The notes under the pieces: generated by a model
Database searches by the model: none
What the model saw: the letters and a program-made list of their open reading frames with translations, nothing else
What the model was told of the DNA's origin: nothing
Shown here: one piece after another, positions 44,422 to 63,638 of the stretch
Numbering within the stretch: position 1 is the stretch's first letter
Layout of the letters: every line of letters starts with the position of its first letter
Position numbers and translations under genes: made by a program
Source: Escherichia phage vB_EcoP-CHD5UKE1
Length of the DNA stretch: 64,000 nucleotides
Sequence record: NC_070989.1
Reading direction: 5' to 3' (one strand)

Positions 44422-44746
<325 letters not shown>

Positions 44747-45567: not shown

Positions 45568-45843
45568 TTACTTATTTCTCAGGGCTGTGTCCAAAAATGC
45601 TTTCAGGTTTGCTTCAGTCTGCATACCGGAGAGGCTGTAGTGCGCACCACTGTTACGGTCAGGCACAACGAAAGCAGGGATACTTCGTACACCATACTTA
45701 ACAGCTTGTTCACGACCATCACCTTCAAGGATGTTAATCTCTTCCACTTCTACATCAAACTCCTTAACAACCTTCTCAAAGATAGGAGCCATTGCTTTAC
45801 ATGGAGCACACTGATCACTATAAAACTTAATTACTTTAGACAT
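45568..45843 (-). CDS. thioredoxin-like protein (91 aa)
   Basis: Active-site-like CAPCK in thioredoxin-type context. Confidence 0.7.
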   Translation of the reverse strand: MSKVIKFYSDQCAPCKAMAPIFEKVVKEFDVEVEEINILEGDGREQAVKYGVRSIPAFVVPDRNSGAHYSLSGMQTEANLKAFLDTALRNK

Positions 45844-47665: not shown

Positions 47666-48199
47666 TTACACACCTTTAGATGCAACTACACCTTCAGAGT
47701 TATTATAACGACCCTTCACTGCATAGGAGTGCTCCCCTGCATGAGAGTGCTCAAACATGACCATCTGACCAACACGCATACCAGCACGAACTCGTAAGCT
47801 GTGGTGCTTGGTTACGTTATGGAATTCAAATGTCAGCTTACTGCTATTAAATCCTGCATCTGCCCAACCTGCGTGAAGGTGGTTCAAACCACAACGAGCC
47901 ATAGATGAACGCAGAACAAACAGACTTGAGATGTTGTCTGGAAGATTAAACTCCTCCATAGAGTGAGCCAAGAAGAACTGACCCGGAGTGATAACCAAAC
48001 CCTCTTCAGGAATCTTTACTTCCTTCCACTGAAGATTCTCTTTCGCATCAATATCAACGATGCCATCAGCCTGTTCTTCAACAAGGATAGTATCACCAAT
48101 ACGGATATCCACACTAGCAGCGTTAACATACTTATGCTCCGCATCCAGATAGCCATTGTCAATTACATCATGCAGTTCAACACTTCCTAGTAAACTCAT
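47666..48199 (-). CDS. dCTP deaminase/dUTPase-family protein (177 aa)
   Basis: Size and ASVDIRIGD block resembling the Dcd/dUTPase beta-barrel family. Confidence 0.55.
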   Translation of the reverse strand: MSLLGSVELHDVIDNGYLDAEHKYVNAASVDIRIGDTILVEEQADGIVDIDAKENLQWKEVKIPEEGLVITPGQFFLAHSMEEFNLPDNISSLFVLRSSMARCGLNHLHAGWADAGFNSSKLTFEFHNVTKHHSLRVRAGMRVGQMVMFEHSHAGEHSYAVKGRYNNSEGVVASKGV

Positions 48200-48208
48200 T
48201 CTTATTCC

Positions 48209-49570
48209 TTAGTTATTTGTTTCCATGTCAAAAGAGATTCCACGACCCGCTTCATCGGCAAACCGAACTGTTCGGGTTTGAGGTTCTAATACTTCAGGGT
48301 TGTTAGCAACAAACCGATCAGCGAGACTACGACTGACAGTCTCAGCTAATTCACCATGAGAAGGGATATCAAGACTACCTACCACATCTTGGGCCACACC
48401 TTCATCAGTCCACACAGCCCTAACAGGTGCGTTGATATCACCAACAGCAAAACCCTGACCAGAGAACTGACGTGCGCTAACAGTTAAACCGTTTGGTCGA
48501 CCACGAGAAGGTCTAGCCATCCATCGCTCCATAGAATCACTTGTAATACCAAGAGCTTCTTCAAAAGATGTTCTACGAGTAGGGCTTACTCTTCGTGACT
48601 CTTGTGCTCGACGCATTGCAGGGGCTACAAACACCCCTTCAATTGCATTGTGTCGGTTAGGTTCCTCTTCTCGACCAAGCAGATCACCACCCGTGTTAGT
48701 CGTTAAATTTGTCAACCCCTCAGACCAATACGCATGAATCTGACCAGAACCGTGAAGACTAGACATAATCTGAATCTCTTCATAAGGGATTCCAAAGAAT
48801 CGACTCATGTCTCGGTTGACACAATATAGAGCACTTGTTGTATCTTCAATAAGAGAAACCTGACCTAATCCATTGACTAGATGACTAACTGGCTGAGGTG
48901 TGGGAAGATATCGAGTTTGGGCCATGTATTGATGTGCAACTGCTGGAGAGGAAAATCTCAACACTTGTGAGTTAGGCCACTTCTTGTGAACATACCTGAT
49001 TTCACGACTAGAGACAACCACTGGACAAGGGGAAGTCATAGCCAAATATCCGTGAGAAGTCATGAATAAGTTGTCAAGAGTCATCGCACCACGGCACATC
49101 ATGGGAAAATTATCCAATACCTCTTCAATAGAAGTAGGATAATTAAACATGAATTGGATACGAACCCCATTCCACTGAAACTCAATAATATCAGTGAATG
49201 TTAATTGAGAACCCCCAGCATAGGATTCGTTTGTAGCTTCAGCAAGAAGTGATGCATATTCAATATCTTGTGACTCTAGCCATTCCTTCACATTACTTTC
49301 AATCTCCCGTCCAAGCTCTTGCCAACGATCAGTTGGGATGAAAGTGTTTTGAGTTCTTGGTGTTTGTCCTCTGACAATAAAGATATCAATGTCATGTGGA
49401 GCTATGTTATTAAGGACAGCATCACGAACAGCCCCACCAGTAATGATGGGACAGATACCATCTGGAATCAAGTTGTTATTAATCAACTGTTCAATGAAGT
49501 GACGACCAACAGTGATATCAGGTTGTTGAGCAACCTTATCTTCAATTTGGTTAATCGGGATAACAATCAT
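48209..49570 (-). CDS. nucleotidyltransferase with CCA-adding/poly(A)-polymerase-type head domain (about 453 aa from ATG 49570)
   Basis: GGAVRD followed by DIDIF (class II tRNA nucleotidyltransferase/PAP head signature GGxVRD...DxD); start 1 nt after the stop of the exonuclease gene. Confidence 0.55.
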   Translation of the reverse strand: MIVIPINQIEDKVAQQPDITVGRHFIEQLINNNLIPDGICPIITGGAVRDAVLNNIAPHDIDIFIVRGQTPRTQNTFIPTDRWQELGREIESNVKEWLESQDIEYASLLAEATNESYAGGSQLTFTDIIEFQWNGVRIQFMFNYPTSIEEVLDNFPMMCRGAMTLDNLFMTSHGYLAMTSPCPVVVSSREIRYVHKKWPNSQVLRFSSPAVAHQYMAQTRYLPTPQPVSHLVNGLGQVSLIEDTTSALYCVNRDMSRFFGIPYEEIQIMSSLHGSGQIHAYWSEGLTNLTTNTGGDLLGREEEPNRHNAIEGVFVAPAMRRAQESRRVSPTRRTSFEEALGITSDSMERWMARPSRGRPNGLTVSARQFSGQGFAVGDINAPVRAVWTDEGVAQDVVGSLDIPSHGELAETVSRSLADRFVANNPEVLEPQTRTVRFADEAGRGISFDMETNN

Positions 49571-49571
49571 T

Positions 49572-50129
49572 TTACATTTTCCAATATAATGAAGGTGGGT
49601 CGTAAGGGTCAAATCCCGTGAGTTCACACAAGAAAAGATAAACCTTAACAGTTAAGTTAACGTCCTGTTCACAATAAGTAAACATATCTTCAGTGAAAGC
49701 ATCCCATGCTTCCTCTTGCTCACCATAATCGCCCTTAAGCTCTCCTAAGAACTCACCCCACTGCTTCAAACCATGACCTCTTGGGCCACGTCTAGGGTCG
49801 CCTTTCGGATACTCAGGACTGTCACCAATACGGTCAGGTTTAAGATATCGACTAAGACATAAAGTGTCAAAGACGTTAAAATTATATTTAATCAAAGAGG
49901 GATACATCTTTTTCAGAGCAGGTAAGTCGAAGTCAATAATATTATGACCCACTAGTACATCTGCTTCTGTAAGTTTACGAATCCCATCTTCAATTTGGTG
50001 AGGCCGATAGCCCCACCTTTCACCAGTTTCAACATCAAAGATATAAATACACCATACTTTAGTTATGTCATCGTACAGTGCATTACTCTCGATATCGAAT
50101 GCAAACACTTTCTTCTTTTTCTTTACCAC
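49572..50129 (-). CDS. DnaQ-like DEDDh 3'-5' exonuclease (185 aa), separately encoded proofreading-type domain
   Basis: Exo I FDIES, Exo [11 protein letters not shown], Exo III YCEQD motifs. Confidence 0.75.
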
Positions 50130-59534: not shown

Positions 59535-60498
59535 TGTAATACTCCACTAGTTCAGAAAAGAGAGATGAGATTGTGTTACCAACTTCTTCAAGAGTAAGAC
59601 CGGAATCTGCTCCAGTTCTTTGAATCAGTCGGGCTGTAAAGTTTTGTACTGTAATGTTTCCCAACTTGTCGTCTATTGCTTCACGTTTGTGACCATAACA
59701 GTTGGACCAGAGTCTTAACCACTCTGACATTGTTTCATACTCGTCCGGGTCTTGATCTTTAGCACGAGCAAATCTTCGTAAGGCATCTTGGTTATGGTTA
59801 CGAACATAACCATTCTCGTTGTCGCCAACACCGAAGGGGTTTTGAACCCATACTTGCTTCGTGTATTCATCAGAGTCTACAACCAAAGGAAGGAATGCTG
59901 CTGCTGACATATTGTTGTTAATAACAATAGAGGTGCTCTCACTACTCCCATTGGCTCTTCCTCGTTGAGACCATCCACCGAAGAAGTCACGACCCAACCC
60001 AGCTAACACTAGAGCGATGCCGATGCGTTTACGCTTCAGCCACTCTTCCCTGTCTTCAATTCCTTCTGCTAGGAAATCCATTCCACGATATTGCCCTTCC
60101 AGAATACTACGAAAGAGCATAAGTCCTGTGAAGATCTGATCTGCTGGATGCTCACGAAGGTTGACAGCAACACTATTCGCTGAAGTGATCGTAAATACGT
60201 CACGATAGCAAGACATGGAGTTCATAATGTCTGCTGTTTCAACCAAGTTCTTTTCAATATCAGATGCAACATGACCGTGAAAAGAGTGAGTCCAGTAATT
60301 CAACATCTCCAGTTGCAAGTTGATATCACGGTTGAAGCGACGATAACGCCCTTCTTCCGAGATAACTTCACCATTAATGTCATTTACACACTGGCCTTGC
60401 ATGTAGTTGTGGATACCGAAGCACCCACGACCTAAGAACTTCTGTTCCCCTAAATCCTGTTGAAGATTAAGAGGTACGATCGTTGTGGAGATTGACAT
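59527..60498 (-). CDS. hypothetical protein (323 aa) within the ligase cassette
   Basis: ORF; no recognisable motif. Confidence 0.45.
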   Translation of the reverse strand: MSISTTIVPLNLQQDLGEQKFLGRGCFGIHNYMQGQCVNDINGEVISEEGRYRRFNRDINLQLEMLNYWTHSFHGHVASDIEKNLVETADIMNSMSCYRDVFTITSANSVAVNLREHPADQIFTGLMLFRSILEGQYRGMDFLAEGIEDREEWLKRKRIGIALVLAGLGRDFFGGWSQRGRANGSSESTSIVINNNMSAAAFLPLVVDSDEYTKQVWVQNPFGVGDNENGYVRNHNQDALRRFARAKDQDPDEYETMSEWLRLWSNCYGHKREAIDDKLGNITVQNFTARLIQRTGADSGLTLEEVGNTISSLFSELVEYYND

Positions 60499-63377: not shown

Positions 63378-63638
63378 TCATTTGTTTTCCTGTGGAGTTA
63401 AGATAATTTCAGCTTTACTAAACTTCTCACCAACAACCATATCACCAGAGATGACACGCAGTTCTCCAGTGCCTAAGTTAACAGCTCCAGCAGGTTGACA
63501 GCCCCTGCTCTTAGCTGTAAGCATATAAATCTTTTGATCCTTACATTCTTGGAGTGTGAATACGTCAGCCATGCTTAGGTCTTTAACATGGAGGATTATT
63601 TCCTCCTTGCTTTTAACTTTAATGTGAATAGTGCTCAT
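63378..63638 (-). CDS. hypothetical protein (86 aa)
   Basis: ORF. Confidence 0.45.
   Translation of the reverse strand: MSTIHIKVKSKEEIILHVKDLSMADVFTLQECKDQKIYMLTAKSRGCQPAGAVNLGTGELRVISGDMVVGEKFSKAEIILTPQENK

Follow-up and report, generated by a model that had tools for sequence, protein, structure and literature searches.

A stand-alone, highly divergent class II-type nucleotidyltransferase in the replication module of an Escherichia kuravirus

What might a phage enzyme do that has kept the catalytic head of a class II nucleotidyltransferase (NTase) and none of the recognisable domains with which such enzymes hold tRNA? The question is raised by a minus-strand gene at positions 48209 to 49570 of a 64,000-nucleotide stretch of Escherichia phage vB_EcoP-CHD5UKE1 (NC_070989.1). 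The whole stretch, called the window here, comes from a kuravirus genome (Gordonclarkvirinae; phiEco32/SU10-like E. coli podoviruses). The reading we tentatively favour is that the gene product is a stand-alone, very divergent class II-type NTase of the DNA polymerase beta (Pol-beta) superfamily, which would serve as an accessory, replication-linked terminal nucleotidyltransferase. Neither the gene nor its annotation is new. What we describe is an accessory enzyme, uncharacterised and in itself ordinary, that has evolved in an unusual pattern. Its parts are as follows (pLDDT, predicted local distance difference test):

48209..49570, minus strand: NTase coding sequence, 453 codons plus stop, confirmed as an open reading frame (ORF).
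48926..49570, minus strand: core conserved family-wide (residues 1-215), Pol-beta/class II head plus short helical extension, modelled with pLDDT >90.
49385..49438, minus strand: motif A, from GGAVRD (residues 45-50; 49421-49438) through DID (residues 60-62; 49385-49393), with two putative catalytic carboxylates.
48701..48925, minus strand: helices peculiar to the Kuravirus lineage (residues 216-290), pLDDT 71-94, median identity to distant relatives 11%.
48209..48700, minus strand: predicted disordered tail (residues 291-453), with 19 Arg and 0 Lys.

The protein belongs to a small family. Searched exhaustively with phmmer, 1.84 billion representative proteins yielded only 32 clusters, and a scan of viral contigs found the family at four loci. 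Homology spans residues 1 to about 215 or 290; the members have 278-482 residues, and their tails cannot be aligned. Among cultured phages, members are confined to Escherichia and Shigella phages of the Gordonclarkvirinae (96 records). In an alignment of 25 members (21-33% identity) G45, G46, R49, D50, D60, D62, F64, Y117, I128, Q139, P156, Y193 and K197 are invariant. The class II head signature that the first-pass annotation had read in GGAVRD and DID is thus present and is kept over this distance. Position 127 is always D or E. It is one of two candidates for the third catalytic carboxylate, the other being the position of Gln139, which is an invariant Asp in the Autographiviridae relatives discussed below. 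The motif is more than a chance resemblance, and the protein has the hG[GS] turn followed by a DxD strand, on an alpha-beta-alpha-beta-alpha-beta core fold, by which the Pol-beta superfamily is recognised.

Profile searches support the Pol-beta-type fold on which the first-pass assignment depended. In hhalign the family profile aligned with a class II profile at E=3e-6 and a probability of 88% over residues 22-62, i.e. over the helix and motif A; the class II profile consisted of nine sequences, among them that of the Bst CCA enzyme. Pfam PF01743 (PolyA_pol head) matched the window protein with E=0.0023 and 18.7 bits, under the curated cut-off of 23, and 17 of the 25 family members matched it as well, every one under the cut-off. 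Against the PDB sequences the family profile found CCA enzymes alone, in the motif-A stretch only, and the sole match below 0.01 was 6ibp (E=0.0026). The window protein itself had no match to PDB sequences in phmmer. An AlphaFold2 model built on the 25-sequence alignment has a pLDDT above 90 for residues 1-220 and of 71-94 for residues 220-290; over residues 292-453 it falls below 50 except for a weak helix at 405-423. With this model, the top 42 Foldseek matches in the PDB were all class II enzymes. Among solved structures, enzymes that add CCA, CC or A come closest, and in the structural comparison PAP I, the E. coli poly(A) polymerase (PAP), leads the CCA enzymes by less than one Z unit. 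The structural comparison with CCA enzymes and PAP, which had been proposed together with the original assignment, hence came out in its favour: as modelled, the protein has a class II-type Pol-beta head with a conserved site for metal and nucleoside triphosphate (NTP).

By its architecture and motifs, on the other hand, the protein does not qualify as a canonical CCA-adding enzyme. The window protein sequence contains neither RRD (motif B, which senses the ribose 2'-OH) nor EDxxR (motif D, the protein template for CTP and ATP). No similarity to the class II profile is detectable past motif A (hhalign E=0.9), and motif A was all that aligned in hhalign, both with E. coli Cca alone and with the nine-sequence class II profile. 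Neck, body and tail domains of class II enzymes are not recognisable in the NTase. That the remainder of the protein does not obviously match the neck and body domains had already been noted in the first-pass annotation and is borne out here, and the tail is predicted to be disordered. Of its classification as a CCA-adding or PAP-type NTase, the class II-type head (motif A and fold) stands and the canonical CCA enzyme does not.

When the profiles are aligned transitively, NFPMMCRG falls where class II enzymes have RRDFTxNA, and the expected Asp is replaced by the invariant Pro156. Two manual mappings were rejected. Equating SIEEVLDNF with SLEEDLKRRDF (motif B) is backed only transitively, via the Autographiviridae profile. 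Equating R-[DE]-xx-Y-xx-KK with EDxxR (motif D) is backed by no tool; the family motif R-[DE]-x-x-Y193-x-x-K-K197 as such is kept, and its identity with motif D would be a matter of manual inference only. Canonical phage CCA enzymes form a separate, easily recognised group of 477 phage records (mostly from genomes of 120-370 kb among the matches listed), and none of the 30 sampled records listed was from a Kuravirus. The window protein matched nothing in NCBIfam and none of the PADLOC models, which include defence-type NTases (CD-NTase/cGAS, MenT/AbiEii).

The closest relatives outside the family were found through structure. In BFVD, Foldseek matched the model to gp03 of Aeromonas phage phiAS7 (H6UK10, 203 residues) with E=1.5e-6 and a target template modelling score of 0.56. 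A tblastn search with this protein gave 177 phage records, nearly all of them T7-like phages of 40-46 kb. The core of the kuravirus family aligned with a profile of seven such short NTases from Autographiviridae over 160 columns (hhalign probability 94.5%, E=8e-8). The seven-member profile in turn aligned with the class II profile, motif B region included (probability 96%, E=3e-9), and one of the short NTases passes the PF01743 cut-off. PHROG 1614 matched the window protein with E=1.7e-7, and the precomputed Pfam family PF26128 is recorded for both the kuravirus family and the short NTases. Judged by these alignments, the kuravirus NTase is homologous to the small NTases linked to DNA polymerase A (Pol A) genes. 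In all seven Autographiviridae genomes inspected, which represent several subfamilies, the short NTase gene adjoins the DNA polymerase gene or lies at most two small genes away, and the window NTase likewise adjoins the gene for the split exonuclease subunit of Pol A. When the short-NTase profile was searched against 5.8 billion proteins, all significant homologues were single-domain proteins of 170-254 residues; one longer match (E=7e-4) was a canonical CCA enzyme, and the search revealed no informative domain fusion. T7 itself has no direct analogue of the NTase (PMC7693777).

In the window the NTase is the third gene of a co-directional block on the minus strand. The first-pass annotation had placed it in a replication module, rightly so, as its neighbours show:

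50123..51913, minus strand: T7 gp4-like primase/helicase, upstream end of the conserved four-gene block.
49572..50129, minus strand: separate 3'-5' exonuclease subunit of DNA polymerase A, with its TAA stop 1 nt before the NTase ATG.
47666..48199, minus strand: dCTP deaminase, starting 9 nt past the NTase stop, the invariant downstream neighbour.

Since only 1 nt separates the exonuclease stop codon from the NTase start codon, translation of the NTase is likely coupled to that of the exonuclease gene. All relatives examined, including those with as little as 29% identity, have the order primase/helicase-exonuclease-NTase-dCTP deaminase. Genes for ThyX, thioredoxin and a ferritin-like protein follow farther downstream. 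The polymerase itself is split: the 185-residue exonuclease subunit lies about 8 kb from the 614-residue polymerase subunit (L001 20085-21929), which is downstream in Bas91. The phage-encoded thioredoxin (window 45568-45843) may act as a processivity factor in the manner of T7.

The gene has been annotated repeatedly. The 1362-nt NTase query is 99.6% identical to its counterpart in Escherichia phage LorandFenyves_Bas91 (Kuravirus), and 68 phage records match it with at least 80% identity. Equivalents are Bas91_0067, SU10 CDS74, phiEco32 gp73 and PHROG 12715, the Gordonclarkvirinae nucleotidyltransferase profile, which matches over the full length (E=3.3e-263, residues 1-453 vs profile positions 1-457 of 457). 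We take the ATG at 49570 as the start because all homologues begin there with MIxIP; a longer version starting at the GTG at 49627 is possible and is not needed. The Bas91 counterpart is already labelled "nucleotidyltransferase" in GenBank. The label goes back at least to 2014, when the SU10 gene was annotated as having a class II-type nucleotidyltransferase domain, classed as early and represented by one peptide in mass spectrometry of an SU10 preparation (PMC4281155). The authors of the BASEL collection drew attention to the gene in 2025 (PMC11990801).

According to the reading favoured here, the NTase would have retained the catalytic head, i.e. a DxD site that binds two metals and takes a nucleoside triphosphate as substrate, together with a reduced helical extension, and would have lost the class II motifs that read ribose and base (RRD, EDxxR) along with the body and tail domains by which tRNA is held. 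In Kuravirus members a disordered, Arg-rich tail of about 160 residues appears to have taken their place. As a presumed member of a podovirus-specific clade of small NTases encoded beside Pol A genes, the enzyme would be expressed with the replication genes and coupled in translation to the exonuclease subunit of the polymerase. It would transfer one or a few nucleotides without a template to a 3'-OH of a nucleic acid met during phage replication, possibly a DNA end, a primer or another RNA, and the variable C-terminal part and the tail would provide the binding of target or partner. It would be an accessory rather than a core replication gene, with deeply divergent alleles swapped between near-identical phage backbones. 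Low ratios of nonsynonymous to synonymous substitution rates (dN/dS) and the SU10 peptide suggest that the NTase is likely active, or at least constrained.

Several points weigh against this reading. Compared with the short NTases, three invariant polar residues have changed: D134, D151 and N155 (phiAS7 numbering) correspond to the invariant Gln139, the invariant Pro156 and Cys159 (Cys, Ala or Ser in the family), and because of these substitutions, as aligned, activity could be weak, altered or lost. To our knowledge, every class II enzyme characterised so far works on the 3' ends of RNA and not on DNA. The adjacency to the polymerase could have been inherited with a T7-like replication module rather than reflect function. 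Literature searches turned up family members at annotation level only, and no functional, biochemical or genetic study of any of them. Finally, the catalytic core is acidic (pI, isoelectric point, about 4.7), which is atypical for a nucleic-acid binder. As an argument against nucleic-acid binding we dropped this last point as weak; true CCA enzymes span pI 5.4-8.4.

The tail has features of its own. It is a polyampholyte with a basic first half (pI 10.9) and an acidic second half (pI 4.35). Within Kuravirus, residues 378-410 are a linker prone to indels, and the C-terminal motif that follows, made up of the last 43 residues (411-453), is conserved. Family members of 278-300 residues have no tail. 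Across the family, the disordered tails contain 3-26 Arg vs 0-2 Lys, and in the window the tail DNA has a GC content of about 48% compared with 42.5% for the window as a whole.

What sets the NTase apart from its neighbours is its divergence. When the amino acid sequences of window proteins were compared with those of other genera and of environmental contigs, the between-genus identity was 77-95% for the primase/helicase, 57-86% for the exonuclease, 70-99.5% for ThyX and, in five of six comparisons, 75-96% for the dCTP deaminase, as opposed to 29-40% for the NTase core. Among the recognisable enzymes with a fixed gene slot in the Gordonclarkvirinae, the NTase is hence far ahead of all others in divergence. 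The contrast is sharpest in contig L015, where ThyX is 99.5% and the dCTP deaminase 96% identical to the window, yet the NTase only 39%. The distribution of identities is bimodal: 68 phage records are at 80% or more, 28 below 60% and none in between. At the nucleotide level, identity is 78-80% over the last 190 nt of the exonuclease gene, drops to 55-57% where the NTase ORF begins, rises to 63-69% at motif A, is 47-57% after it and recovers at the stop codon. The divergent unit is thus the whole NTase ORF. A recombination breakpoint just past the DxD, which had been read from BLASTN, was withdrawn; the direct identity counts put the drop at the ORF start and make motif A a conserved island.

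Within Kuravirus, dN/dS is 0.076 for residues 1-64, 0.13 for residues 65-290 and 0.42 for the tail, so the NTase core is under purifying selection there. The core exceeds the flanking genes two- to threefold in its synonymous rate (dS). An increase of dN/dS by a factor of about two is too small to yield a divergence about ten times higher. Therefore the between-genus alleles are probably much older than the backbone and have been swapped by recombination. Homologues in the Autographiviridae show a similar picture, with 99% vs 48% identity among related Pectobacterium phages (PMC7693777). As to neighbouring genes, the dCTP deaminase of Bas89 (L006 7296-7850), the sixth comparison, is 58.5% identical to that of the window at 47666-48199, and thus the NTase neighbour, too, is sometimes replaced by a divergent allele. 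Genes for HNH homing endonucleases are found at varying points around the four-gene block in related phages (L006 3184-3675 and 7834-8343; L018 7352-7810; L022 3228-3689), and these endonucleases could be a vehicle of local allele exchange.

An explanation starting from this pattern is that the NTase is a swappable conflict module on the replisome. One chemistry would be kept while ancient, divergent alleles are swapped as cassettes comprising the whole gene. The reason would be that the target which the enzyme nucleotidylates or caps is variable, being either a component of host defence or a nucleic-acid end sensed by defences. We regard this as conceivable though unlikely. If it were true, the small Pol A-linked NTases of podoviruses would be a new class of counter-defence enzymes.

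A related reading, which we consider rather improbable, is a counter-defence or host-takeover effector: the NTase would attach nucleotides to some variable component of the host or of a defence system, be it a protein, a small molecule or a signalling nucleotide, or would be a decoy for it. This would account for the strong divergence between related phages relative to the primase/helicase and the dCTP deaminase, and it is in line with the near-identical backbone of L015, the dip of DNA identity from ORF start to stop, the empty interval between the identity classes, the raised dS and the similar behaviour of the Autographiviridae homologues. However, the putative active-site residues are invariant in all alleles, and a dN/dS well below one gives no direct sign of positive selection. 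The lack of a PADLOC match also counts against it, with the limit that the PADLOC library consists of defence proteins and not of phage counter-defence proteins. Moreover, of the defence systems tested, Fun/Z alone was effective against Gordonclarkvirinae (PMC11990801).

A similarly low probability applies to PAP-like tailing of RNA, by which the enzyme would mark host transcripts for decay or modify phage RNAs such as primers or transcripts. The Arg-rich disordered tail recalls the C-terminal region of PAP I, which is arginine-rich and basic as well. The NTase gene is also transcribed with the replication genes, early in SU10 (PMC4281155). Yet the tail is missing in many family members and in all Autographiviridae relatives, PAP I keeps the RRD and EDxxR motifs that the NTase does not have, and its lead over the CCA enzymes in structural similarity is the small one given above.

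The first-pass annotation had put forward repair of tRNA 3' ends as a role. As a CCA repair enzyme, the NTase would counter host nucleases or toxins that act on tRNA acceptor ends. This finds no support in our analysis and is quite improbable; among the rivals it is the one least compatible with the anatomy of the protein. It is true that the nearest solved structures belong to the CCA-, CC- and A-adding enzymes, that bona fide CCA enzymes exist in large phages (PMC7824862) and that the phage has one tRNA. ARAGORN found no tRNA gene and Rfam no family within the window; outside it, Bas91 has a single tRNA-Arg(UCU) (L031 2451-2526; Bas91 63450-63525). However, this tRNA encodes its own 3' CCA and the host has Cca. 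The domains for holding tRNA are missing, residues 292-453 being disordered instead, and members of 278-300 residues are entirely without a tail. Neither RRD and EDxxR nor any other sequence similarity is found beyond motif A, and the genomic link is to DNA polymerase rather than to genes for tRNA or RNA ligase. The 5' end of the Bas91 tRNA-Arg(UCU) gene shares 10 nt with a gene annotated as a homing endonuclease.

The substitutions relative to the short NTases would also fit a catalytically impaired pseudo-enzyme which binds a nucleotide or a nucleic-acid end and partners the split DNA polymerase in a structural or regulatory role. The invariant Gln139 in place of an invariant Asp, the loss of the Asp and Asn of motif B, the tight coupling to the exonuclease subunit gene and the conserved C-terminal motif in a disordered tail, which is typical of a partner-binding element, all point in this direction. 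But the residues of GG..RD and DxD never vary, and position 127 always carries an acidic residue. The simplest reading of this is a working metal and NTP site, and we consider a pseudo-enzyme very unlikely.

Scarcely likely at all is a role in covalent DNA modification or an unusual-nucleotide pathway together with the adjacent dCTP deaminase, which the BASEL authors suggested as a basis for the striking resistance of these phages to restriction-modification systems, no modification pathway being known (PMC11990801). The invariant dCTP deaminase neighbourhood would suit it, and loss of the class II ribose-sensing motif could permit the use of dNTPs; but dCTP deaminase and ThyX make up the standard route of dTTP supply, and around the Autographiviridae homologues, which neighbour DNA polymerase, the stretches examined contain no gene annotated as dCTP deaminase. 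Besides, we know of no Pol-beta or class II NTase that takes part in DNA base modification.

Two other regions of the window may be mentioned. Upstream of the replication genes, at about 52100-60000 on the minus strand (L001 1-9438), genes for a COOH-NH2 ligase, an amidoligase, a glutamine amidotransferase-like protein, an ATP-grasp protein (RimK-like) and a gamma-glutamyl cyclotransferase are clustered. The COOH-NH2 ligase/amidoligase/ATP-grasp cluster is kept in distant relatives, with a rather divergent ATP-grasp protein (43-66% identity between genera), and suggests the synthesis of a peptide-like metabolite or a peptide tag. At 44535-44591 a homopolymer of 57 nt, with A on the plus strand, lies between the copies of a 55-bp direct duplication (about 44480-44645 with the flanks) and interrupts a small minus-strand ORF, the Bas91 counterpart of which (Bas91_0056) is annotated as 'anti-restriction nuclease'. 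At the equivalent place Bas91 has one copy of the 55 bp and no run. The arrangement looks like either an assembly or library artefact or an insertion with target-site duplication.

What our analysis adds to the existing annotation is that the NTase belongs with a so far uncharacterised clade of small enzymes of its kind, the genes of which stand beside those for DNA polymerase A in podoviruses resembling T7 and phiEco32. In the phage collection there are 177 Autographiviridae-type and 96 Gordonclarkvirinae records of such NTases. The recurrent linkage to the polymerase and the cassette-like divergence of the alleles make the NTase a reasonable experimental target. Identification of its acceptor would give a function to an accessory gene that recurs in podovirus replication modules, and might bear on the restriction-modification resistance of these therapeutically used E. 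coli phages.

Among known systems, the short NTases of Autographiviridae (phiAS7 gp03, VP93 gp16, PM16 gp16, PP1 gp18) are most similar. About 160 residues are homologous, their size is that of the conserved core, and they, too, are uncharacterised, fast-evolving and located inside a T7-like replication module. Unlike the kuravirus NTase they have only 170-215 residues and no tail; the Asp of their 'hDhL' strand is invariant, and of motif B they retain a remnant, FD..N.

The class II tRNA NTases, i.e. the CCA-adding enzymes (Bst 1MIV, Tm 3H37, human 1OU5), the A-adding enzymes (4WBY, 1VFG) and the CC-adding enzyme (3WFO), share with the phage protein motif A, GGxVRD followed after about nine residues by DxD, and the preceding helix. 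Past motif A the similarity ends and the PF01743 score is sub-threshold; in contrast to these enzymes with their RRD, EDxxR and neck, body and tail domains, the phage NTase has a disordered tail in place of the tRNA-binding domains. E. coli PAP I (PcnB, 3AQL) has the head fold in common with the NTase at 14% sequence identity, but it retains the two motifs and a full neck and body, and it is basic overall (pI 9.7) whereas the phage core is acidic. A protein reduced to a CCA-enzyme-like head domain also exists in Streptococcus pneumoniae (NP_344798.1, 2LA3). It differs from the kuravirus NTase in being bacterial, in its far weaker structural match and in having no known replication-gene context.

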